From the UHGV virus genome UHGV-0038492: a stretch of 64,000 nt of DNA; one strand, 5' to 3'. A model generated the notes under the pieces. That model worked only from the letters and a program-made list of their open reading frames with translations. It was not told the origin of the DNA and made no database searches. Both the position numbers and the translations under genes were made by a program. Origin of the DNA: a virus. The stretch's first letter is position 1, and every line of letters begins with the position of its first letter. Positions 30,662-63,452 of the stretch are shown in pieces.

Positions 30662-30742
30662 TAACCCGCTTATAAAAAAAATATTGGGGGGGGGGTAAGC
30701 TACTCCCCCCGATCTTTAGCTCCCGATAGAGAACTTAATATC

Positions 30743-40236: not shown

Positions 40237-40322
40237 AGGGTTGAAACCCACTTTCGATAATTATTAAACAGGGGAATTTACCCCCCCCCTCCACATAGAG
40301 TAAATCCCTAAAGGAGCATTAA

Positions 40323-50676: not shown

Positions 50677-50747
50677 GTAAGTTAAATCGGGGGGGGGGTG
50701 ACCTCCCCCGATATTTCTTTAACTCGTATTATTAAGGACCTAAGATA

Positions 50748-52031: not shown

Positions 52032-52579
52032 TCATCGTCTCCTTTAATCAATCCTAATTCGATTAACAGTTCAAAATCGATATGACGGAATCTTGTATCA
52101 AAATCCGATTCCCAATCGATGCGGATACCCTGGCACTCTTCTGATGTTAGCTCGGGAAAAATTACGGTATTAAATTTCTCACGCTCATCGTAAAACCCAT
52201 CAATCGGTGAGTTCGGGTTACGCGTTGCGAAAATAGTAATACCAGGGAAAGATAATGCTAACACAGTGATAGATTCTGCGCTGGGCTCACTTAAAGAGCG
52301 GCGTAGAAACGCAATTTTGTGGCGTGGGAAGTCCAATACGCGTTCTTCAAACCCTGGATTACGTTTTTCGATTTCCGCTACCGACAGGTCAGTAAGTTCG
52401 GTGCAATACATTGGGATGATTACAGTCACGCCGTGGCGAATCAGTAAACGTTTTACGTCATCGGTAAAATCTTCGCCGTTAATCATCACGTAACAACCGA
52501 ACAGCTTACTGTTTTCCAGAAACTTATCCAGAAGTCGAATTCTACGCTTCGTAATATTGTTGATCAGAATTGGTTTCAT
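52007..52579 (-). CDS. hypothetical protein in the radical-SAM cluster
   Basis: 190-codon ORF; AAGAGAAG upstream of ATG; start overlaps the upstream gene. Confidence 0.5.
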   Translation of the reverse strand: MKPILINNITKRRIRLLDKFLENSKLFGCYVMINGEDFTDDVKRLLIRHGVTVIIPMYCTELTDLSVAEIEKRNPGFEERVLDFPRHKIAFLRRSLSEPSAESITVLALSFPGITIFATRNPNSPIDGFYDEREKFNTVIFPELTSEECQGIRIDWESDFDTRFRHIDFELLIELGLIKGDDECLLLVKA

Positions 52580-53864
52580 CTTTGGCTTCTCTTAATAATT
52601 TTTCCTTTTGGGCGCGTTCACGAACACAGCGTGGGCAATAACACATACTCGTGTCGTGGAACGCTTTTGCTGACGTCGTACCCATCTTCTGTTTCCAGTA
52701 TTCCGCCACCATCAGTTTCGCTGTCGTCCACCCGCACTGACGTCGCTCAGCGTGATACGCTTTACGGTCTTCCAGTGTCCCTTCACCGTTTTCGTAAGAA
52801 GCCGCAGCGCAGCTACCACAAGCGTGTTTCATCGGACAACCTAAGCACGTCTCTGGATAGTTGGTATATTGTGTTTGAATCTCTTCTAACAATTTACCGT
52901 TGTCCAGGCTGACGAATTCCCGACCTACCAACTCAAATACCGCAGAACGTGATGTTACGGTTGACATAAAGCGATTGCAACCGAAGATCTTACGGTCAAA
53001 ACCTAAACACGTCATGTGTGTTAATGTCCCACAGAACGGACGTAAACGTTCTGGGTTCAACCGCACCGTGTCATTATAAAGTAATTGATCACGCCAGTTC
53101 GGTTCCCAAATCGTATCGAAATCCAACCCTTCTGGGATGATGTGCGATAAGATATTACGTGGGTTGGTGTGTAATCCTTTCTCGACCCAATAATCAATCA
53201 CATCCATCATCTGCAATGCAATTGAAGTAGCCATCCCACGTGGCATAATGTCTTCGAAGGTTACGTTGCCGGAGATAGTTCCGCCACCAGTAATATCAAT
53301 TAATGACTTCATTCCGGCAGCATAGTACGGTAACGTTTCTAACGTAAAGGTCGCCTTTACGCCAAGCTCTGCAATGCCAACCTCTTTTAAGTAGTTATAG
53401 CCTCGTACTGCGGCTTCGTAAGAACCCTGGCGCGTCGTTGTAAAGATACGATAACGGTCATGGGACTCAGGTAAGCCGTCAATTGAAACCCCAACCGAAA
53501 GTTTGTCTTTCCAACGCTCTACGATCTCACGGTTCAACGGGCGATCTAACAACGTCCCGTTTGTGGAAATACTAAACATAAACGGCCGATTATGTTCTTT
53601 ACACAACTGCTCGGCGGTTTCAAATGCAGCCAGCAGCAACTTAGGCTGCATGAACGGTTCACCACCGATAATGTCAATAATAACTTCAACATTCGGTTCG
53701 TTTTTATCGCGTTCAAAACAGGCGTGCAAGAAATCAACAATATCTGCCGCTTTGTTGTTACGCGGGTACTTACGTTCGTAACAATATTCGCAGTCCAGGT
53801 TACACGAAAGGTTCGTTACAATCTGATACGTTAGCTGCTTAGGGAATTCATTTACCTGACTCAT
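52542..53864 (-). CDS. radical SAM enzyme with SPASM-type C-terminal Cys-rich domain (anSME/peptide-maturase-like)
   Basis: CNLDCEYC (CxxxCxxC) at residues 21-28, GGEP SAM motif, C-terminal cysteines in CGTLTHMTC...GC and CLGCPMKHACGSC; GAGGGG upstream of ATG. Confidence 0.8.
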   Translation of the reverse strand: MSQVNEFPKQLTYQIVTNLSCNLDCEYCYERKYPRNNKAADIVDFLHACFERDKNEPNVEVIIDIIGGEPFMQPKLLLAAFETAEQLCKEHNRPFMFSISTNGTLLDRPLNREIVERWKDKLSVGVSIDGLPESHDRYRIFTTTRQGSYEAAVRGYNYLKEVGIAELGVKATFTLETLPYYAAGMKSLIDITGGGTISGNVTFEDIMPRGMATSIALQMMDVIDYWVEKGLHTNPRNILSHIIPEGLDFDTIWEPNWRDQLLYNDTVRLNPERLRPFCGTLTHMTCLGFDRKIFGCNRFMSTVTSRSAVFELVGREFVSLDNGKLLEEIQTQYTNYPETCLGCPMKHACGSCAAASYENGEGTLEDRKAYHAERRQCGWTTAKLMVAEYWKQKMGTTSAKAFHDTSMCYCPRCVRERAQKEKLLREAKDETNSDQQYYEA

Positions 53865-54771
53865 TTGCCGCCCCTCTATTACGACCTGCCATCACTACGC
53901 GACGAATATATTCGTACGCCTCTACACCGATAGAGAAGGCCAGTTGGTTACACCCGGATTCCAGTACGTTAGGTGCGTTCTGGAGCTGGTGCTCACCACC
54001 GTCTGCATTAATCCAGAGACTTTCGCTGCAAACGTTACACCCTTCTTCAAACACTTTACTTACCGTAAAACCACATTCACGACTGTTTACTACATTCAGT
54101 CGTTCAATGTTGTCCTGAACCCGATAGTAGCCGTAAATAAAGTTCATGACGTGGTCAGGTGATAAAGGCTTTGGCATTTTCGCATCTAAGAGTAACGTCA
54201 TTGCTCGGAAACCGTAATGGTAAATCGCGCTGTGCAGCTGAATAATATCTTCATGCCAACGTTTATCCCCCAAACGGTCCCGTGTCAAGACACCCCAAGT
54301 CTGGACATTATCCAGCTCGTAGATCGTTTCCAGTGCTTCGTAACAGCCTTCGTCAATAAAGCGCATAAATGGACGCTCAGACGACTTAAACCCATCGATG
54401 CTAACGTAGACATTGTCAAACTGTTTTAGCAACGGGAGATGCGATTTACGCATCTTTAAGCCATTGGTATACAACTGGTGTTTGAGTTCTGGACGAATCA
54501 CTTTTAATTCGTCAACAAACGCCTCAATTTTACGGGTTGCCAATAGTGGCTCACCACCCGTCCACTGAATTTCGGTAATGGTTGGATTAGCTTCCAGCGC
54601 TTCCAAAATTCGCTCACGTTGAAACTCTCGCGGAGAATCTTCACGATTCATGTAATAGGCTCCACCGCAGAAGCTACAATCCAGGTTACACTTGGACGTA
54701 GCGACTACGGACAATACGGTGGGTTTATCGTATAAACGATTCGATAACCTTGGTTCTGCATTGGTTGTCAT
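53848..54771 (-). CDS. radical SAM enzyme (paralog, shorter Cys-containing C-terminus)
   Basis: CNLDCSFC at residues 28-35, TGGEPLL motif, C-terminal CGF...CNVC. Confidence 0.75.
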   Translation of the reverse strand: MTTNAEPRLSNRLYDKPTVLSVVATSKCNLDCSFCGGAYYMNREDSPREFQRERILEALEANPTITEIQWTGGEPLLATRKIEAFVDELKVIRPELKHQLYTNGLKMRKSHLPLLKQFDNVYVSIDGFKSSERPFMRFIDEGCYEALETIYELDNVQTWGVLTRDRLGDKRWHEDIIQLHSAIYHYGFRAMTLLLDAKMPKPLSPDHVMNFIYGYYRVQDNIERLNVVNSRECGFTVSKVFEEGCNVCSESLWINADGGEHQLQNAPNVLESGCNQLAFSIGVEAYEYIRRVVMAGRNRGAANESGK

Positions 54772-54792
54772 TGCAGGTGACTCCGGTCGTTT

Positions 54793-55680
54793 TTAAATAT
54801 AATCAATGGCGAACAAAGGATCGTCGTCTACGTTAGCACCAGGGGTTAACAAGAATGGAGAGTTATACGCTTCCAAAATACGGTTAAGGTCTTTATAACG
54901 GACATTTAAACGTTCTAAATCCGCTAACGTTACGTTACGGTCCAACACCGCCGACACTGCTGCTTTCTCTTCGTCAGTTAACGTGACTTTCGTCATTAAG
55001 AAACTAACGAGTTTTGCCAGATCCGCTTCTGTTGACGGATGCTCGCCGATACGCGTTTGAATCAAATGCTGCATCCATGGTTTACGGATGCGTTTTGTGA
55101 TCTCATGTTCATCCGTTAGGGCAACCCACACGGAACGTTCACGATCCCACACGAACTTATAGCTATACGCCATTAAATCCGCTAAACAATTAATCCCTAA
55201 GGCTTCGTACCCTTCAATTTCAATATACGATTCCGTATCGAAATAGTTCTTCGTTTCTGGTGTTACCAGGGTAAAGAAATACGGGAACGAGCCCAAGTAA
55301 TCTGGTGACCACCAACGACGGGCAACCGGTTTTGCACCCATTTCTTCAAACGGGGTAAAGAACAATTCCATATCCACGGAGTTATTCAAAATCCCATCAC
55401 TAAAGAAATATTTACCTGCAACCAATTTACCACGCAACTCAGAGTCACCGGTAAATACCACTACACTTTCTGCCGTCAGATCACGAATCTTAAACGTATT
55501 TTCTACACGATAGTTTTTACGATCGGTAAAGAAACGTCCGCGCACTTTAGGCCATTCGCCTGGCAATTGCGTCAGCAGACGAACTTCATCTGCTAAGTGT
55601 GCACGTACGGAATCAGGGGAAGAAATGTGAAGTGGATGATTGAAAATCGTTTTGTACGCTAAATGTAAATCATTCTTCAT
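54793..55680 (-). CDS. hypothetical protein in the radical-SAM cluster (possible accessory/partner protein)
   Basis: ATG at 55680 after GGAG; the track start at 55692 is TTG. Confidence 0.55.
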   Translation of the reverse strand: MKNDLHLAYKTIFNHPLHISSPDSVRAHLADEVRLLTQLPGEWPKVRGRFFTDRKNYRVENTFKIRDLTAESVVVFTGDSELRGKLVAGKYFFSDGILNNSVDMELFFTPFEEMGAKPVARRWWSPDYLGSFPYFFTLVTPETKNYFDTESYIEIEGYEALGINCLADLMAYSYKFVWDRERSVWVALTDEHEITKRIRKPWMQHLIQTRIGEHPSTEADLAKLVSFLMTKVTLTDEEKAAVSAVLDRNVTLADLERLNVRYKDLNRILEAYNSPFLLTPGANVDDDPLFAIDYI

Positions 55681-55947
55681 TGATTGCTCCAACTATTTTA
55701 CGGTCAAACGGACGTTCAGGGTATAGAACCCACCCCGCCATTGTCTGCCGGTAACTTGAAACTCAGCAGTAAACCCATTCGATTTACTCGGTTGCTGGTT
55801 AATCGCCATACTACCGCCGGAATTCTTAAAACCTCTAAAGAGATAGAAGCAGAAGTCGCATTACCGATTGAGTCTATCTTAAAACTAGCCGCATCTGTAA
55901 AATTGACAGTAATACCATCACCCATCGCAACTCGGGGAAAGGCTTAC

Positions 55948-56154
55948 TTACCGCCCCCCTGCTCCCTTACTACAGCTACCGCTGCACGACCAGCTACATC
56001 CACCGTTACAGTTGTAGTGGCTTAAAGGTAAACCGGCAAGGTTATTGGTTGAAGACACGGTACCCTGGTTTGCAATATAGTTGTTTGCGTTAGCGGTCGT
56101 AATATACCCTTCCGCTGTTACTAAACGATCACGAAGGTTCTTAAGGCTAATCAC
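55948..56154 (-). CDS. Cys-rich peptide, short third copy (leader plus 4-Cys core)
   Basis: GTG start 2 nt after the upstream stop with GGGAGG SD; leader ISLKNLRDRL... and core CNGGCSWSCSGSC. Confidence 0.5.
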   Translation of the reverse strand: MISLKNLRDRLVTAEGYITTANANNYIANQGTVSSTNNLAGLPLSHYNCNGGCSWSCSGSCSKGAGGR

Positions 56155-56156
56155 AA

Positions 56157-56555
56157 TTACCTCCCAGAACACCCACCGGAACAAGAACCTGAACAGCCTG
56201 AAGAACAGTTCCCTGTACACGCGTTAGAACAGCTCCCCGTGCAACTTCCTGAACACCCACCGGAGCAGGTATTCGAACATCCGCTACAGCCCGCGCTACA
56301 ACCTGATACGCAGTTTGCAGAACACGAGGAACCACAACCACCGGATGCGTTTCCTGTGCAGCCACCAGAACAACTCGAACACGTCCAGCTACAACTACCT
56401 CCGCAGTCGTAGTGATTGCGGGCCTGTCCTCCGAATAAGTCTGCGTTGTTTGTCGCTTTCCCGCGAATATAGTTTTGTACTGCACCCGTATTCTTCAATG
56501 CAGTGCTGTCAATGTTATTTAACCGCGCTTGTAGCGCAGGTAATCCAATTGCCAT
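56157..56555 (-). CDS. Cys/Gly/Ser-rich peptide precursor (about 50-aa Cys-free leader, about 80-aa core with 20 Cys)
   Basis: AAGAGGTG upstream of ATG; core of repeated C-x2/3 units such as CSGGCSGSCTGSCSNAC. Confidence 0.65.
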   Translation of the reverse strand: MAIGLPALQARLNNIDSTALKNTGAVQNYIRGKATNNADLFGGQARNHYDCGGSCSWTCSSCSGGCTGNASGGCGSSCSANCVSGCSAGCSGCSNTCSGGCSGSCTGSCSNACTGNCSSGCSGSCSGGCSGR

Positions 56556-56565
56556 TTTTCACCTC

Positions 56566-56961
56566 TTAGGTTGGGCCAGAACAGCCGCCAGAGCAGGCAC
56601 CAGAACAACCCGTAGAACAACGGCCTGAGCAAGCACCCCCACAGGTTCCGCTACAACCTGAACACCCACCTGAACACGTTGAGCTACATCCAGTACATTG
56701 GTTACCGCACGCAGAGGAGCAGCTGCCTACACACACAGACGTACAAGTACCCGAACAGCTCGTACAACCATGCGTACAGCCGTTTGAGCACGTCCAGCTA
56801 CAACTACCTCCGCAGTCTAACCGGTTTGGCGTCCAACCCGAAAATGTGTCGGCTGCATTATGTGCTTTCGACGCAACTTGCGGATCAACACGTGGGCCAG
56901 TTGCCATTTGGTTCTCTACGTTGGTGATTCGGTCACGTACGTTTTTAACACTGATCGCCAT
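56566..56961 (-). CDS. Cys/Gly/Ser-rich peptide precursor (leader plus core with 21 Cys)
   Basis: ATG at 56961 after TAAGGA; leader VKNVRDRITNVENQ...; core begins CGGSCSWTCS. Confidence 0.65.
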   Translation of the reverse strand: MAISVKNVRDRITNVENQMATGPRVDPQVASKAHNAADTFSGWTPNRLDCGGSCSWTCSNGCTHGCTSCSGTCTSVCVGSCSSACGNQCTGCSSTCSGGCSGCSGTCGGACSGRCSTGCSGACSGGCSGPT

Positions 56962-57028: not shown

Positions 57029-58228
57029 TTATTTCGTACCCGCTTCCGCCTGTACGTCATCACGAGACGTCAGGTTAGCGTTAACGTGTACTGCGGCCTG
57101 AACCACGCCACCGTATTTCTTGTGGAGATAACCGGTGTGTGGGTTATCTGCCGCAATGTGGTTTTGTAGGTTTTGGTTCGCTTGACTGATTGCGTTCGTG
57201 TTATTGTTAACCTGCTGTTTAAGCGCATCCAGGCTTTGTTGTACCTGATTGATTTTCTGATCGGTTTCTTGACCCTGTTGCTCTAACGCGTCAACACGCT
57301 GAATAACCTGATTCAGTTTTGTGTTTAAATCGTTGATGTTCTTTTGCAGCTGTAACACTAACGAGTTCAGGTTCGCTAACGCTAAGGCCATTTTCTGGTA
57401 GTTTTGAGCAACCACGTTAAGTTGGTCGTTCCACGCTTCCAGAGAGTTGACAACAGCGTCAATACGTTTACCTAAAGCTTCGTCCGCTTTCTTCAGTGCA
57501 TTGATTTCCGTAATCGTTGCATCGATAGCAGACTGAACGTCACGAATAAGCGCACGGATTTCAGTTTCTCTTAACCCGTTAACCTGGTGAATATCAAGAT
57601 GGTGAACGTTACCCGTTGCGTTGATGTGTGCATTTAAAGCATCTAAGAAGTCATTTTTCAGACTTTCTAAAATCGCTTTAATGTTCTCTAACTGTACCGC
57701 GTCACCAGAACTGATCGCATCTTTAATCCCCGCCAATACGGTGATGATATATTCAAAACCGTAGATGTCACCCACGTCTTTATACGTCGGTGCAGACGGG
57801 AATGTATCCGGTACGTTACGTAAGTCTTTAAACGCAATCGTACGGTTATCGAGGTTTAACTCAGCAATCGCCTGTTCGATAGCCACGATGTTCGCAGACT
57901 GTGGACCACCAACGACCTGCGCAGATACCGTAATATCTGTTGGAATCGCTGTGTTAGTGACCACCACCGCCATAACAATCTCGCGGTTTTTAGTCAGCTT
58001 TTCATAAGTCGGGTGTGCAAAAATCAACTCATAATCGGTACCACGTTCGTAGGTTGCTTCCGGTCGGTTAGCAACGCGTAAACGGAACGTGTCCGCAAAG
58101 AACGGACCATCAGGAAAAGCAAAAGCACGGTTTACTTTACCTGTACCTAACGTAATCTGACGCTCCACAGCGTTAGACGTTAGCGAGCCCGTTAAATCTA
58201 AAGGATATTGATAAACAATGGAGGCCAT
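57029..58228 (-). CDS. fibrous coiled-coil virion protein (fibre/whisker-like)
   Basis: ATG at 58228 after AAGGAGAG; long heptad-like Q/N/L-rich C-terminal half; N-terminal PDGPFF motif shared with the 1727-aa protein. Confidence 0.65.
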   Translation of the reverse strand: MASIVYQYPLDLTGSLTSNAVERQITLGTGKVNRAFAFPDGPFFADTFRLRVANRPEATYERGTDYELIFAHPTYEKLTKNREIVMAVVVTNTAIPTDITVSAQVVGGPQSANIVAIEQAIAELNLDNRTIAFKDLRNVPDTFPSAPTYKDVGDIYGFEYIITVLAGIKDAISSGDAVQLENIKAILESLKNDFLDALNAHINATGNVHHLDIHQVNGLRETEIRALIRDVQSAIDATITEINALKKADEALGKRIDAVVNSLEAWNDQLNVVAQNYQKMALALANLNSLVLQLQKNINDLNTKLNQVIQRVDALEQQGQETDQKINQVQQSLDALKQQVNNNTNAISQANQNLQNHIAADNPHTGYLHKKYGGVVQAAVHVNANLTSRDDVQAEAGTK

Positions 58229-58268
58229 GGCCACTCTCCTTTATTCGAGACGTCCTTGTCCCGAGTCA

Positions 58269-61200
58269 TTAAGATGTAAACATAAGATTGAACTGGAGTT
58301 TGTCGATATCGCGAGTTTCTGCTGGATTCACACCATCGTACGCGGTCGCTACGTAAACCGTTAGCGTGCCGTTAGCGTAAGACGATTTCACCGGTGGGTT
58401 AGTTCCAGTCTGACCATCTCGCACAATGAGTGTAGGTTCACTTGGGAGATTATCAAACTGACCCTTGACCGCTTTATACACCAAACCAGATTGCGCAGAC
58501 AGTTCAGTGTCCGTAAAGACAAAGAACGGTGTGTCGATATCAGCCTGTTTAATCGTGGTACCGGTCTCGACGTCAATCAACTGTACCGCCCCAAACTTCG
58601 TACGATAACTTTCATACTCGTTCTTCGGAATAACGAACGTGACGTGAACGCGAACCTCCTCGGCAGGTTTAAACCCAGCGTGCTCTTTTTCCAGGTACTG
58701 GTTGGCGGTTAACGTGACGTCCTGCTCTTTCATCGTACCACCGGCCTGGTTTAATGCATAGCGAGCTTCAACAATACCGGTTGGCGCAGCAAGTCGCAGT
58801 TTCAGAGCACGATTTGCCGTTCCTGGATTACCTGGCACCTGAACGCGCAAACTCAATGCTAAGTAAACATTCGTTCCGGTAGTCGGTTTCGTATACGCAC
58901 CAATCCATTTCATGTTCGCAGACGCTGCCTGCGTGTTCTCAGAAGCAGTGGCTGTCGCAATGTTAGCAGCTACCGCTTTCTGCCAGAATTGGTCAGCGCA
59001 GTTCTCATACGCTACCCTGGCCACGCTCTTATAACCCGAATACGTTTCCTGAATTGGTAACTTAGGACGCGTCGTAATACCAGACAATGAACCCCATTTT
59101 TGACCGTCAACATACCCTTCGCCCTTCGACGCAGACGCCGTAGGCGCTTTAACGGGTTTGTTAACCAGTGTTAATAGAGGACCCGTCTTTCTGTCAAACG
59201 CTGCTGCAACATCATGTTGGTCGATAATTGCTGCGTGGTCTTCCAGTTCTTTCACACGACCCAAACGTTTTACTTTGTCGATGTTGATACCAGTAATACG
59301 GCTGGAATCGGTGGTTACTGACCCGACGAACAGTCTTGTTGAAGTGTCAGCTAACTGCTCCAAACCGATACGGTATTGCGCAGTAGAACCTGACACCTCA
59401 GCGTGCACGTAGAACGTCTGGTTAGCGTGGTTAGACGGGAATTCGCTGCTTAAATCCACAGACCACGTTGGGAGTGTGTAACTGCTGCTACCGAAGTCTA
59501 ACTTGACTTCTTCTGTCAAATACAGAATCCAGCCTTCTGCTGTCTCCACACCGGCAATAATAACAGCCTGACCTCCGGTTGAGAACCTCGTGTCGTTAAC
59601 GAACTCTGCGGCTGTATACGCGTTACCTGAACAGAAAACACGGTCAGCTTTAGAGTAAATCAACGCCATCTTGTCCCAATTACCCGCACCCATATAGCAC
59701 CCAGATTCTGGGTTATGTGCAGGGGCCATCTGTCGTAACTGTGACTTACCAGGAACGCGAGACCAACCTGAACCTGGGTCGTAGGTATACTTCGCGGCGT
59801 AACCTAGTGCATTTAAGTCCCCGATATTTCGGATAGTTAACGTATAAGGTAGCCAAATACCGAAGTTTACACCGTCGGCAGAAGCAAAAATTGGCTGACC
59901 GACACGTCGTGTTTTATTACCCGCTTCTTCCCTCAGAGACTGATAACTTAAACCATAATCGAGGTCTAAGAACCAGTCCACCAACTTAAAGGTGGCTGAG
60001 TTGAAACGTAAGTAGCCGTTCTCTTTAGATGGACTCACCATGAAGTAATAGATGTCAAGAATTCGACGTCCGTTACTTGAGGTTTTCATGCACGAAACTT
60101 GCAACAAGTCAAATTCGCACACGGTGTTGATACCCAACATCCAAAGAGCAAACAGTGCATTACCGGTTTGATGTGCAGCACTGATGCGCTCATTCGCGTA
60201 ACCATTTGCTTGACCAGATGGCGCACCGTCAACGATCATCCGAATCATTTTCTGACGATCGGCTTCTTCTAGCGTTAAGCGTTCGGAAGACAATGCGAAA
60301 TTACCGTAGATGTTACGATACGGGAACGTTTCTGCTTTGGTCAAATACCAACCGTTTAGCTGCCCGTGACGCTCCTCAGGAGTCATGCACGCAGCCATAC
60401 AGCTAAGCTGCTCGTAGAGCGTTGGATCGACTTCACGACGGTTGTTGTTCGGACCGTATCCGCTATAACCCGGAACATCGTAAGGTTTGTTCGGATCAAC
60501 TTCTACTTCGATGGTGTAACGGTTACGTGGGTTAGACAACCACACTTTATTCGAACCGCCTATTCCGACAGGATGGGAAAGACCGATGGTGTAAATAGAA
60601 CCGCGACCTTTATCCCAGGTAAACGTTCCTTCGCCCGAGGTGTTGTTTGGGTTATCGTAACGCAGATAATCGAAAAGCTCTTTGCCTTGTGTACCCTTAA
60701 TAGAAACATTAGGCATTTGGTCCGCATCGTTAATCTGCCAGCAGGAAAGCATCATTCCTGTACCGTTAGGTTTTGCATACGTCGCGAAACAACGGTTGTT
60801 TGCCTGACCACCACCCCACTTACGACTGGTTTCTACAGTTGAACCATCCGCGAACGAGAGTGCAGTAGCATCAGCCTTGATGGGGAAGCGTTCGCGGCCT
60901 TCTAACGTAACCTTGCCCGTCAACGTATCGATTGTAAAACTTGTTGCCCATTGACGAAAGTTAATTTGTGAGCTGTCGGCCGCTGCAAACCACACAGTAG
61001 GCATATGGTTCACACGAATCACGCTTTCGCGTACCGCACACGCGTGGTTACATTCTGGCCCGTGAACAAAGTTGTGGCCAATTGTCCATTTAGCCCGTGC
61101 TTCCGGCGTCAAATACGTAAAGAATTGACCCGTCTGCGACTCTTCGGTTTTCTGGCCAATACGTAGGCAGAGGTTATCTCCGAATTGTCCCATTTCACCG

Positions 61201-63452
61201 GTTAGTGTTACACGTTCAAATTCTAACGTAGTGTTAGTAGACAAATCGTCTTTACGTAAGCGCCATGCTGCAACAGCGTAAGCAGAGTTATTTACCGTGG
61301 AGCGGAGAAGATAAACATAGTCCTCAACCAACACAACGTCATCGGCTTCTGGCCACGGATTCCAGGTTTGTTCTGTAGTACCGCTGGGGTTACCGTTACG
61401 GTACATAGGCATCGTGACACGACATACCACCGTGTGTTTAGTGTGGTCCATCGAACCATTAAACAGCACCAAATAACGATTATTGTCAGAACCCAGGCAA
61501 ATAATCGCTTCCTGACCACCGATCAATATCGCTTTTAGGGTCACTCCAGGATATTTACTCATCCCGGCAGGGTGATATTTCACTGAGGTCTGCTGCGGAT
61601 TTACAAACGCGTTTGAGGTGTTAATGTCCGCGTAGCCGTAATAAATGGCTTCTGTACCCGGCACGCCATTAGAACCGTTACGTAGCGAATAAACCTTACC
61701 CTGCTGATACCCAACAACCCCTTTCTGGTAAGACTGGTTTTTGGTATAGCCCGCGTAGTTACCTAACGCTGGGATAGGTAAGAAGTTCTTATTACCGAAC
61801 TTCGCACCGCCTACCGTCCATGCCGGTAAGATGGTATTCAGTTTATCAGAGACTTTCTTAATCTCTTTTGCGAACAACCACCCTTGACGTGACGTGACAG
61901 CTTTATCATTAGTGGTGTCAATTGCATCCCACAGCTGTAAGACACCGTCAACCGTTGCACTACCAATTGGGACGTTATCCAAGTCAGCAGTGGTGTGGGT
62001 GTGCGTTTTCAAACTCTTGTTTTTCAACACGTTCGTTAACGCTTTTGTCACAGGCTTAGCACTCGGTATGGTGTTATCCATCTTATCGATACCGAAATCG
62101 GTTTTCGTTAAGGTTAACACCATCTTGTCGCCCGTCTTAACAAACCCTTTACCGTTAACGGTATAGTCATCGTCAACGTACAGGTCCAAACGGTCTTTTA
62201 GTTCGGTTACGGCTTTCTGGGAGATGGCAGTACCTAACGCCGCAGACGTAGAGATGTTCGTAATCGAGAACAACCCATAAACTGATTCGGACGCTGTGGG
62301 AATATTCGCGTTTAACGTGACCGGGTTAGTCTGTTTTGCAGTACCGTACGGTTTTACGGTGTCTGACGCTTTGAAATACGCGTTTGCTTCAAGCAACGTT
62401 ACTGACGTCAGATACATGTTCACCATTTCTGGCGTGACCAGGTACACGGAGTTATAAACCGGTGCTAATACATCCTGTTCTGACCCCGAGTGAACCCAAA
62501 GCGTATTCAGACCCGCACTAAACTCCACCGCTAAACCTGATTCGTTATTGTCCTGGTCTGCTTTAATCACTAACGGTTGCGGTGAGGTAATTAACCACTT
62601 ATCACCACGAATACTGATGATGTGACCACCTGACGTTTTAAACGTTAATTCATTACCGTTCGTGGTACCCCATCGACCGTAAACAGTACCGAGGGCTTCA
62701 CCCATTAACTGATCAACGTCGGATTGCTCGATACCCGCTGAACCCATCAGCGTAGCCAATTCGTCAATCGTCAACCCAAATGCTTTTGTGGCGTCAACAG
62801 CGCGTCCTAATACGGGGAGAGCAGCAACGTCGTCAGTGGTATAGTGATGCGCGTTAGGGTTACGGTGATGCTGGTATAATTCTTCGTCGAAAACCTTTTT
62901 CCCGTTCTCGTAAATCAGGTTAGTGACTTCGCTAAACGCAGCATCCAACTCCGTAGAACGCTTAATGATTTTCTTGCGAATGTCTTCTAACGCCTTAACA
63001 ACCTCGTCCCTCAGAATCGCTTCTTCTAAGTTAGCAGGCGGGTCGATAGGCTGAATAACCGGCGCATACGCCATTAGTTCAGACCAGTCCACGTTACGTG
63101 GGTCTTTCAGGTCAGTACGAACTAAGAACTTCCCGATTTCAGATTGTGGTACACGGTATTGTCGTGCTACCCCTAAAATCTCATATTCGATTTCTGTTGC
63201 GGTAAGCAACATAAACCCGCCATAAATCTGATCTTGCTCAGCTTCGGCGAGTTCTTTAAAGTAATAGCCTAAATAGTAGTCCAACCCCTCAATCAGAGTA
63301 CGACGTCCGTTAGGCGCGGTATCGTCGGCTACTGTGAGTTTTAATCCGATACGATAAAAAGGTCCTTCAGGCGGAATGACCACGTTAAATCGGTTAGGGT
63401 ACGTCGCTGTGCTTAACGTACCGTTAAACTGCGCCGCGTCTTCTCTCGGCAT
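58269..63452 (-). CDS. very large structural protein (1727 aa), probably tail fibre/host-specificity protein
   Basis: AGGAG upstream of ATG; N-terminal PPEGPFY motif parallels the 399-aa protein. Confidence 0.7.
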   Translation of the reverse strand: MPREDAAQFNGTLSTATYPNRFNVVIPPEGPFYRIGLKLTVADDTAPNGRRTLIEGLDYYLGYYFKELAEAEQDQIYGGFMLLTATEIEYEILGVARQYRVPQSEIGKFLVRTDLKDPRNVDWSELMAYAPVIQPIDPPANLEEAILRDEVVKALEDIRKKIIKRSTELDAAFSEVTNLIYENGKKVFDEELYQHHRNPNAHHYTTDDVAALPVLGRAVDATKAFGLTIDELATLMGSAGIEQSDVDQLMGEALGTVYGRWGTTNGNELTFKTSGGHIISIRGDKWLITSPQPLVIKADQDNNESGLAVEFSAGLNTLWVHSGSEQDVLAPVYNSVYLVTPEMVNMYLTSVTLLEANAYFKASDTVKPYGTAKQTNPVTLNANIPTASESVYGLFSITNISTSAALGTAISQKAVTELKDRLDLYVDDDYTVNGKGFVKTGDKMVLTLTKTDFGIDKMDNTIPSAKPVTKALTNVLKNKSLKTHTHTTADLDNVPIGSATVDGVLQLWDAIDTTNDKAVTSRQGWLFAKEIKKVSDKLNTILPAWTVGGAKFGNKNFLPIPALGNYAGYTKNQSYQKGVVGYQQGKVYSLRNGSNGVPGTEAIYYGYADINTSNAFVNPQQTSVKYHPAGMSKYPGVTLKAILIGGQEAIICLGSDNNRYLVLFNGSMDHTKHTVVCRVTMPMYRNGNPSGTTEQTWNPWPEADDVVLVEDYVYLLRSTVNNSAYAVAAWRLRKDDLSTNTTLEFERVTLTGEMGQFGDNLCLRIGQKTEESQTGQFFTYLTPEARAKWTIGHNFVHGPECNHACAVRESVIRVNHMPTVWFAAADSSQINFRQWATSFTIDTLTGKVTLEGRERFPIKADATALSFADGSTVETSRKWGGGQANNRCFATYAKPNGTGMMLSCWQINDADQMPNVSIKGTQGKELFDYLRYDNPNNTSGEGTFTWDKGRGSIYTIGLSHPVGIGGSNKVWLSNPRNRYTIEVEVDPNKPYDVPGYSGYGPNNNRREVDPTLYEQLSCMAACMTPEERHGQLNGWYLTKAETFPYRNIYGNFALSSERLTLEEADRQKMIRMIVDGAPSGQANGYANERISAAHQTGNALFALWMLGINTVCEFDLLQVSCMKTSSNGRRILDIYYFMVSPSKENGYLRFNSATFKLVDWFLDLDYGLSYQSLREEAGNKTRRVGQPIFASADGVNFGIWLPYTLTIRNIGDLNALGYAAKYTYDPGSGWSRVPGKSQLRQMAPAHNPESGCYMGAGNWDKMALIYSKADRVFCSGNAYTAAEFVNDTRFSTGGQAVIIAGVETAEGWILYLTEEVKLDFGSSSYTLPTWSVDLSSEFPSNHANQTFYVHAEVSGSTAQYRIGLEQLADTSTRLFVGSVTTDSSRITGINIDKVKRLGRVKELEDHAAIIDQHDVAAAFDRKTGPLLTLVNKPVKAPTASASKGEGYVDGQKWGSLSGITTRPKLPIQETYSGYKSVARVAYENCADQFWQKAVAANIATATASENTQAASANMKWIGAYTKPTTGTNVYLALSLRVQVPGNPGTANRALKLRLAAPTGIVEARYALNQAGGTMKEQDVTLTANQYLEKEHAGFKPAEEVRVHVTFVIPKNEYESYRTKFGAVQLIDVETGTTIKQADIDTPFFVFTDTELSAQSGLVYKAVKGQFDNLPSEPTLIVRDGQTGTNPPVKSSYANGTLTVYVATAYDGVNPAETRDIDKLQFNLMFTS

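Follow-up and report, generated by a model that had tools for sequence, protein, structure and literature searches.

Modular exchange and decay of C-terminal receptor-binding domains are known from phage tail-fibre genes, and programmed frameshifting provides phage structural genes such as lambda G/GT and T7 10A/10B with extended products. Hypermutable poly-G tracts, i.e., contingency loci, have been described in genes of Campylobacter Fletchervirus phages (Sorensen et al. 2021, as presented in PMC10877375) and in T2/T4 genes (Gomez et al. 2025, bioRxiv 10.1101/2025.10.21.683753). Among peptide-modification systems, the CXXX-repeat/TIGR04115 and PapB systems are the closest to the locus considered here: as in these systems, peptides with a Cys at every fourth residue adjoin radical SAM enzymes in the window, i.e., the whole stretch of 64,000 nucleotides that was analysed (UHGV virus genome UHGV-0038492). 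The region shares ~71% DNA identity with Salmonella phage SPN3US and other Seoulvirus phages, and the window thus derives from an SPN3US-like jumbo phage. In such phages, a CXXX peptide family adjoins two radical SAM enzymes in the tail-fibre region. Unlike the CXXX-repeat system, the set in the window is phage-borne, lies among fibre genes, and comprises, besides a pair of radical SAM genes, a 295-aa protein that is conserved.

Among NCBIfam profiles, the 440-aa enzyme matches the CXXX-repeat peptide maturase TIGR04115 best (E = 1.4e-33 over positions 3-345 of the 359 in the profile), with 116.9 bits, short of the curated cut-off of 350 bits; it also matches the PapB-type ranthipeptide maturase NF047865 (E = 2.2e-33). 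The second peptide scores 20.7 bits against TIGR04114 and so reaches the curated 20-bit cut-off, and the third gave no match to this profile at the same cut-off. Because an enzyme score of 117 bits is far below 350, the peptide and radical SAM pair is a distant relative of the TIGR04114/TIGR04115 system, i.e., it shows resemblance rather than membership.

Every gene around the third peptide gene (peptide 3) lies on the minus strand. The initial annotation had described this gene as having a leader like those of peptides 1 and 2 and a core that ends after four Cys, followed by about 255 bp with only a weak 69-codon ORF devoid of Cys and of a Shine-Dalgarno (SD) sequence. Sequence, alignment, and coordinates agree with this description, the distance from the peptide 3 stop to the ATG of the 295-aa gene being 267 bp, or 255 bp if an upstream TTG is used. 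A 38-codon ORF in the same spacer (55693-55809) was missing from it. It is very probable that peptide 3 is conserved and intentionally short and that the spacer is a recently inactivated pseudogene remnant of a cassette, here labelled CTD-A, which in certain uncultured relatives forms an intact 154-codon open reading frame behind peptide 3. The features of the region are given below in transcription order; P0001 is a protein with an intact CTD-A frame.

58269-63452, minus strand: 1727-aa fibre or baseplate protein, the upstream-most of the neighbours listed
57029-58234, minus strand: 401-aa coiled-coil virion protein, preceding peptide 1
56566-56961, minus strand: Cys-rich CXXX-repeat peptide 1, 131 aa, ATG at 56959-56961, phrog_6085
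56157-56555, minus strand: Cys-rich CXXX-repeat peptide 2, 132 aa, phrog_6085
56160-56165, minus strand: Shine-Dalgarno sequence GGGAGG of peptide 3, inside the last peptide 2 codons, 5 nt before the GTG
55948-56154, minus strand: peptide 3 gene, 68 aa, GTG start at 56152-56154, TAA stop at 55948-55950
55951-55960, minus strand: G tract AGGGGGGCGG with an interruption, 3' end of peptide 3, corresponding to uninterrupted G8-G11 in relatives with an intact cassette
55940-55941, minus strand: junction of a ~202-nt deletion (GTAAGTAAGCC joined to TTTCCCC), placed by an alignment of 14 loci
55825-55943, minus strand: remnant segment 1 (...AFPRVAMGDGITVNFTDAASFKIDSIGNATSASISLEVL), homologous to P0001 residues 91-128
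55716-55925, minus strand: 69-codon ORF, ATG start, no Cys, no convincing SD
55824-55825, minus strand: site of a 1-nt deletion (TTAAGTAAT to TTAAGAAT), placed by the alignment, with which the remnant moves to a second frame
55693-55830, minus strand: remnant segment 2 (NSGGSMAINQQPSKSNGFTAEFQVTGRQWRGGFYTLNVRLTVK), homologous to P0001 residues 129-173, with the original stop TAG at 55693-55695
55693-55809, minus strand: 38-codon ORF within segment 2, ATG start, in a frame other than that of the 69-codon ORF, no convincing SD
54793-55680, minus strand: 295-aa gene, phrog_8030 (function unknown), ATG at 55678-55680, SD GGAG at 55687-55690
53848-54771, minus strand: radical SAM gene, 307 aa, after the 295-aa gene
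52542-53864, minus strand: radical SAM gene, 440 aa, best NCBIfam match TIGR04115

Peptide 1 has 132 aa if it is counted from the upstream GTG given by the ORF tool (to 56964).

The product of peptide 3, MISLKNLRDRLVTAEGYITTANANNYIANQGTVSSTNNLAGLPLSHYNCNGGCSWSCSGSCSKGAGGR, has 68 aa and four Cys in C-x3-C-x3-C-x3-C spacing, and its CXXX core terminates in GAGGR (C-terminus ...HYNCNGGCSWSCSGSCSKGAGGR). Its first 48 residues, along with the initial Cys repeats, align to peptides 1 and 2. Against phrog_6085, which comprises Cys-rich peptides of SPN3US-like phages, peptide 3 matches with E = 2.3e-24 at profile positions 2-66 of 129, and peptides 1 and 2 match over the full length with E ~1e-40. 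A tblastn search found peptide 3 in 50 GenBank records of Salmonella, Escherichia, Proteus, and Erwinia phages, with orthologues in Seoulvirus, Machinavirus, and Erskinevirus as well as in metagenome loci. All of the more than 40 loci examined (these three genera together with metagenome and isolate-assembly contigs) have the core HYNC[NG]G[GS]CSW[STA]CSG[SG]CS-x-GAG-x-x with its four Cys, the length being 68-69 aa where no cassette follows and 69-71 aa, or more in read-through forms, where one does. Compared with SPN3US, peptide 3 has a DNA identity of 77% and a protein identity of 92%, the corresponding values for the 295-aa gene being 70% and 75%. A protein identity so far above the DNA identity, along with constant length and Cys, indicates strong purifying selection on peptide 3. 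Within the Cys-rich (CXXX-repeat) family, peptide 3 is a member of intentionally short length that is conserved and not decaying. The earlier suggestion of a deliberately short core is borne out by the same 68-69-aa four-Cys peptide in Seoulvirus, Machinavirus, and Erskinevirus, and the suggestion of a decaying or diverging precursor repeat unit gives way to a short four-Cys gene that is nearly unchanged across the three genera. A shared short gene with a conserved spacer in related phages had been named as a sign of function: relatives do share the gene, which argues for its function, whereas the spacer is not conserved, which argues for decay. The decay thus concerns the spacer, an entity other than the precursor repeat that had been imagined.

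What the spacer once was is apparent from locus L017, whose 295-aa protein is 90% identical to that of the window. Here the gap measures 469 nt and is filled entirely by the CTD-A frame, which reads VSKPSGGGSTPTPSRPAYDNKAVVYVESKLHAKDVVRINF...GFTAEFEVTGRQWRGGFYTLNVRLTVK, ends 8 nt short of the 295-aa gene's SD, and encodes a Gly/Pro/Ser/Thr linker followed by an all-beta domain. The frame is also intact in L031, L032, and L034, and a protein search returned P0001-P0003 (172-173 aa, 58-90% identical). P0001 originates from a Salmonella Enteritidis isolate assembly. With a dN/dS of 0.13-0.17 among L017, L031, L032, and L034, and of 0.38 in the pair that is closest, CTD-A is genuinely protein-coding and under purifying selection.

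In the alignment of 14 loci, the window spacer corresponds to the 3' half of CTD-A. Approximately 202 nt are absent after GTAAGTAAGCC (55941/55940), and homology picks up at ...(A)FPRVAMGDGITVNF...; further on, at 55825/55824, a single T is absent (TTAAGTAAT to TTAAGAAT), which shifts the frame and is not within a homopolymer. A tblastn search of the window with P0001 reproduced this arrangement, residues 91-128 matching 55943-55830 in frame -3 (E = 2e-18) and residues 129-173 matching 55830-55696 in frame -2 (E = 7e-24, 41 of 45 residues identical). The homology is real and not a chance pattern. From the two frames it follows that the 69-codon ORF is remnant segment 1 continuing out of frame, and that the 38-codon ORF is the tail of segment 2; both are by-products of the two deletions and not genes.

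The same deletion junction of ~202 nt is found in L033, a near-identical phage in an independent assembly from another sample, in which peptide 3 is 100% and the 295-aa gene 98.4% identical to the window in DNA. L033 is free of the 1-nt deletion, but one additional G downstream of that site breaks its frame, and because its frameshift sits elsewhere, its ORFs differ from those of the window. Between the two CTD-A remnants there are 0 synonymous and 3 nonsynonymous changes and two independent frameshifts, which points towards relaxed constraint after the disruption, although the counts are tiny. The dN/dS of the window remnant against the intact CTD-A copies is 0.07-0.18, a low value which implies that most of the divergence arose while the gene was still functional and that the loss is recent. 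In the lineage of the window, the ~202-nt deletion took away the 5' half of CTD-A, an event common to the sister phage L033, and the 1-nt deletion later cut the rest into two frames. The spacer is the remnant of an optional extra domain that relatives attach to peptide 3. Of the earlier idea that the gap might hold a small unannotated gene or an RNA element, the gene survives in the form of a broken remnant; a functional gene or a detectable RNA element does not. By itself, the feature in the window is ordinary gene decay: the 69-codon ORF should stay unannotated, and the interval is a pseudogene remnant. The result for the window is thus mainly an annotation clean-up, and the interest lies in the exchanged cassette site of the relatives, which is probably switched by poly-G.

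A spacer of 10-27 nt within an identical gene order is found in most relatives, among them SPN3US, Erwinia phages, and several from metagenomes. Remnant-bearing relatives have 60, 68, 121, or 149 nt, and two loci with an intact cassette have 469 and 481 nt; the 267 nt of the window are one step in this series of length variants. The sequences closest to the window are uncultured (L009, the metagenome contigs L015, L016, and L024, and L033), and L009, the IMG/VR contig 3300029126_000001, encodes a 295-aa protein 99.7-100% identical to that of the window. L009, L012, L015, L016, and L024 have undergone another deletion, between the imperfect direct repeats TAAGTAAgCCcTCCGGYGG and TAAGTAAtTCCGGCGG, and remnants of the L009 type contain stop codons within the CTD-A frame. 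L011 and L020 show additional, distinct deletions, and L023 has kept the 5' part only. Some of the deletions in relatives are bordered by short direct repeats.

The same site holds a second, unrelated frame of 156 codons, CTD-B, in L021, L035, and L036-L045 (including L041). What lies between peptide 3 and the 295-aa gene therefore varies among relatives: CTD-A, CTD-B, deletion remnants of either, or nothing. Neither CTD-A nor CTD-B matched any entry in Pfam, PHROGs, or NCBIfam; tblastn at E <=1 gave no match in 50,697 GenBank phage records, and none was found in the IMG/VR scans. AlphaFold models of the two domains are of low confidence (pLDDT 51 and 53), and fold searches with these models returned generic beta-sandwich/jelly-roll matches only, which are unfit for assignment of a function.

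Both domains occur fused in frame to peptide 3. The fusion with CTD-B, P0005, has 226 aa and is present in at least 10 contigs of ~222 kb (locus L035), and the fusions with CTD-A, P0035/P0036, have 222 aa (loci L047/L048, with a G10 run). In the fusion products, the junction of peptide 3 and domain would be spanned by peptides such as GAGGGVSKPSGG... or ...CSKGAGGGVSKPSGGGSTP.... In P0013 (92 aa) and P0014 (106 aa), peptide 3 continues into one or the other wrong frame of CTD-B. Peptide 3 has four Cys only, and its version in relatives can bear a folded domain of 150 aa, unlike the precursor of a leader-core natural product. The fusion proteins suggest that the Cys-rich peptides serve as protein parts, possibly in the virion, rather than as secreted natural products.

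The history of the cassettes differs from that of their surroundings. Over its last 118 nt, the window remnant shares 93-94% identity with L012/L031, whose 295-aa gene is 71% identical to that of the window, and 86-88% identity with L009 (88%), L015, L016, and L024, the 295-aa gene of L009, L015, and L016 being 97% identical to that of the window. Likewise, CTD-B of the SPN3US-like L036 is 87-88% identical to that of L021, whereas the flanks are 73% identical. This conflict between the phylogeny of the cassettes and that of their flanks indicates that cassettes have moved between phage lineages. As in the exchange of C-terminal domains in tail fibres, the relatives have unrelated cassettes behind a conserved N-terminal part, a phylogeny that conflicts with the flanks, and deletion remnants; unlike in tail fibres, receptor binding by CTD-A or CTD-B and a place of peptide 3 in the virion would be hypothetical, the fold matches of the domains being limited to the generic beta-sandwich/jelly-roll.

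The cassettes of relatives start within a run of G8-G11 located where peptide 3 ends. Lengths of this run are taken from metagenome/Logan assemblies, in which homopolymer errors are possible, and L047 and L048 are short contigs; with this reservation, the state of the junction in each class of locus is as follows.

Loci with no cassette: G2-G4
Intact cassette, uninterrupted run: G8 in L021; G9 in L017, L032, L034, and L041; G10 in L044, L045, L047, and L048; G11 in L031
Intact cassette, interrupted run: L035, in frame; L042 and L043, with one extra G relative to L035
Loci with a remnant, including the window: interrupted G6, GGGGGGAAGG or AGGGGGGCGG

With CTD-A, N+G10 places the domain in frame (L047, L048), and N+G11 (L031) or GCG+G8 (L017, L032, L034) places it in the +1 frame, where peptide 3 stops two codons on; L048 with G10 is in frame, whereas L032 with G9 and L031 with G11 are out of frame. 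Counted over both cassettes, 7 distinct loci have the domain at +1 relative to peptide 3, 2 have it at -1, and 3 (L035, L047, and L048) have it in frame. Among L021, L035, L042, and L044, which are 96-98% identical in peptide 3, the CTD-B domain, and the 295-aa gene, the frame of CTD-B is +1, in frame, +1, and -1, respectively, and it is at the junction only that identity falls to 77-89%, with indels. Thus, tract-length differences that change the frame among close genomes, as expected of a contingency locus, are found in the relatives only. The tract of the window, AGGGGGGCGG, consists of G6 and then an interruption, and falls short of the uninterrupted homopolymer of at least ~7 nt that characterizes contingency loci. 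The domain frame is fully open over more than 150 codons in all cassette-bearing loci, and since this includes the out-of-frame ones, the domain appears to be still under selection.

On these comparisons, the poly-G run of the relatives is somewhat likely to be a hypermutable switch of frame that yields either a short peptide or a fusion of peptide, linker, and domain. In phages with an intact cassette, the length of the run would set whether the domain is in frame with peptide 3, and the frame could be changed by DNA slippage and possibly by slippage of RNA polymerase or the ribosome. The phage of the window would have lost this option, given the interruption in its run, the stop codon immediately behind it, and the loss of a working domain, so that presumably only the 68-aa peptide is made. 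The relatives resemble phages with known contingency loci in that an uninterrupted G8-G11 run in a coding region of the tail-fibre module varies in length among near-identical genomes and shifts the downstream frame. They differ in that the tract lies at a domain junction and the 'off' state still gives a complete, conserved peptide of 68-70 aa; the switch would add or remove a C-terminal domain rather than turn a gene on or off, and the length differences are those between assemblies of different phages. In the window, in contrast to such loci, the tract is interrupted and the cassette is dead.

A different explanation for the intact relatives does without a switch at the level of DNA: the domain would be an overlapping gene of its own, or programmed +1/-1 slippage, ribosomal or transcriptional, would give access to it. 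This could account for the +1 position of the domain in 7 of 10 distinct intact loci and for domain frames that remain fully open when out of frame. Internal ATG/GTG starts exist in several loci, and gene callers used such starts for P0001, P0008, and P0025; in L021, the SD AAGGAG is followed 6 nt later by a GTG in the domain frame, and in L036 a GTG lies 8 nt past the peptide 3 stop. However, the internal starts are not conserved and are mostly without SD, the domain frame opens with a Gly/Pro/Ser/Thr linker, which would be an atypical N-terminus, in-frame fusions are known for both cassette types, and tract length varies among near-identical phages. As for programmed frameshifting, the relatives resemble lambda G/GT and T7 10A/10B in that a single start would give both a short and a C-terminally extended product, a slippery homopolymer being the entry to the alternative frame; unlike in those genes, the frame relation is not fixed (+1, -1, or in frame). 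No conserved stimulator of a programmed-frameshift site was identified at the junctions, where the frame relation is variable. We therefore regard an overlapping gene or programmed slippage as unlikely, though far from negligible. A further proposal, of -1 frameshifting at G GGG GGA in the remnants of L011/L012, was superseded once intact cassettes had been found.

If the frame switch in the relatives is true, phage contingency loci would extend to Salmonella and E. coli jumbo phages and would be linked to a phage-encoded system of radical SAM enzymes and Cys-rich peptides. It is tempting to go further, although we can offer this only as a tentative and rather doubtful model: the four-Cys CXXX peptide, presumably modified by the adjacent radical SAM enzymes, might be a conserved N-terminal module to which the poly-G run adds, or from which it removes, the interchangeable beta-sandwich domains CTD-A or CTD-B, giving a phase-variable fibre or adhesin component with post-translational cross-links, and the window might represent a 'fossil' state in which both switch and domain have been lost. 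A search of GenBank phages and the literature found no description of a variable cassette site behind peptide 3, and a search of the literature on SPN3US radical SAM genes, Cys-rich peptides, or cassettes in SPN3US-like phages found nothing relevant. The site, with two unrelated domains, horizontal exchange, repeated decay, and a frame-changing poly-G junction, thus seems to be undescribed.

Other readings of the spacer in the window have far less to recommend them than that of a CTD-A remnant. It is very unlikely that the spacer encodes a functional small protein, be it the 69-codon ORF, the 38-codon ORF, or a 77-aa frameshift product of both. Both ORFs begin with ATG, and their combined reading gives a plausible beta-rich sequence with a low dN/dS against intact homologues; the latter is, however, accounted for by recent loss from a once-selected gene. 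Neither ORF has a convincing SD or a match in Pfam or PHROGs, and neither is kept in L033, which breaks the frame elsewhere in spite of a peptide 3 that is 100% identical in DNA. Moreover, the 0 synonymous to 3 nonsynonymous changes between the remnants of the window and L033, and the in-frame stops and missing 5' part of the L009-type relatives, argue against a protein. Joining of the two ORFs by slippage at the T4 run GGTTTTAAG was considered and rejected, as the alignment shows a deleted T in AGT. An antisense ORF of 113 codons (55684-56025, plus strand) is not kept in L033 or in the intact loci.

Hairpins are frequent at the precursor-enzyme junctions of peptide-modification clusters, and structure prediction places a small G-run/CCCC hairpin at the spacer's 5' end. 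That the spacer has a regulatory role or forms a structured RNA, i.e., an attenuator or terminator setting the precursor-to-enzyme ratio, a promoter, or a small RNA, is nevertheless highly improbable. The spacer gave no Rfam family at E <=10 and no tRNA, terminator-like site, or promoter-like site on the coding (minus) strand, and the energy of its predicted RNA fold is ordinary (z-score -0.97). In addition, the interval is missing from most relatives in spite of their identical gene order, and its substitution pattern follows codons. The GC content of the spacer equals the genome average.

Misassembly can occur in homopolymer-rich, repeat-flanked regions, and the deletions of the window could in principle be assembly or sequencing artefacts in a phage with an intact cassette. 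There is hardly any likelihood of this, as the 202-nt deletion has an identical junction in L033, whose assembly is independent and from a different sample, the 1-nt deletion of the window is outside any homopolymer, and many other relatives bear different remnants. A repeat or mobile element was also considered and set aside: blastn and tblastx found no second copy of the spacer in the window. At the DNA level, the spacer had no match in the 50,697 phage records.

That peptide 3 is a truncated, decaying duplicate of the longer precursors is extremely improbable: it does align with the first half of peptides 1 and 2 only (profile positions 2-66 of 129), but its length and four Cys are constant in three genera and many metagenome loci, its protein identity is far above its DNA identity, and it has a strong SD of its own. 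Peptide 3 therefore deserves annotation as a real, conserved gene. Reference annotations, including the RefSeq record of SPN3US, miss or mis-frame these peptide genes.

A conserved gene for a 295-aa protein (phrog_8030; window 52542-55680 with the radical SAM genes) lies between the peptide genes and the radical SAM pair; searches of Pfam and NCBIfam returned no match for its product. The protein was found in all relatives examined, at 55-100% identity, and this constancy suggests that the peptide/radical SAM system probably cannot do without it as a partner. In a more distant relative (Logan contig SRR30564794_20310; locus L046, 1501-2706), peptide 3 is 91 aa long and ends in another short C-terminal extension, ...GAGGSTRQVAAAPVTHTKHCFCGHLFGG; the next gene encodes 306 aa. 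The site behind peptide 3 may thus have a third variant in this extension.

At the peptide 3 junction itself, a possible small hairpin (window 55941-55960) can form from the G run, TAAGTAAG, which holds the stop codons, and the downstream CCCTCC or CCTTTCCCC. It constitutes the first stem of the predicted RNA fold of the window spacer, and equivalent parts also occur in three remnant-bearing loci (L009, L011, and L012) and in L017, which has an intact CTD-A. The window contains three other long G/C homopolymers, all of them intergenic:

30686-30695, G10 homopolymer, intergenic
40281-40289, C9 homopolymer, intergenic
50689-50698, G10 homopolymer, intergenic

Three runs of at least nine G or C per 64 kb, at 45% GC, is far above chance expectation. 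Each of the three supplies one side of a G/C hairpin stem, as in GGGGGGGGGGTAAGCTACTCCCCCC, and a T-rich stretch follows two of them; these predicted structures look like terminator hairpins.

The Cys-rich peptide genes are wrongly handled in reference annotations, both in SPN3US (L001 6954-7983, i.e., NC_027402.1 143191-144220) and in the related loci L003-L008. In the SPN3US RefSeq record, peptides 1 and 3 are not annotated, and the sole annotation of the region, at peptide 2, is a wrong-frame 111-aa ORF (ACQ60_gp100). In several Erwinia phage records, peptides 1 and 2 are overlaid by antisense or out-of-frame annotated ORFs.

Relatives of the phage are also present, as contigs of about 220-227 kb, in numerous isolate assemblies at NCBI, both from E. 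coli and from Salmonella enterica, whose serovars here include Enteritidis, Chester, Agona, and Weltevreden. The proteins concerned are:

P0001
P0023-P0025
P0037-P0041
P0051-P0056

Their occurrence in so many isolate assemblies suggests that the phage often accompanies isolates into culture, be it in a carrier state, by pseudolysogeny, or in some similar way.
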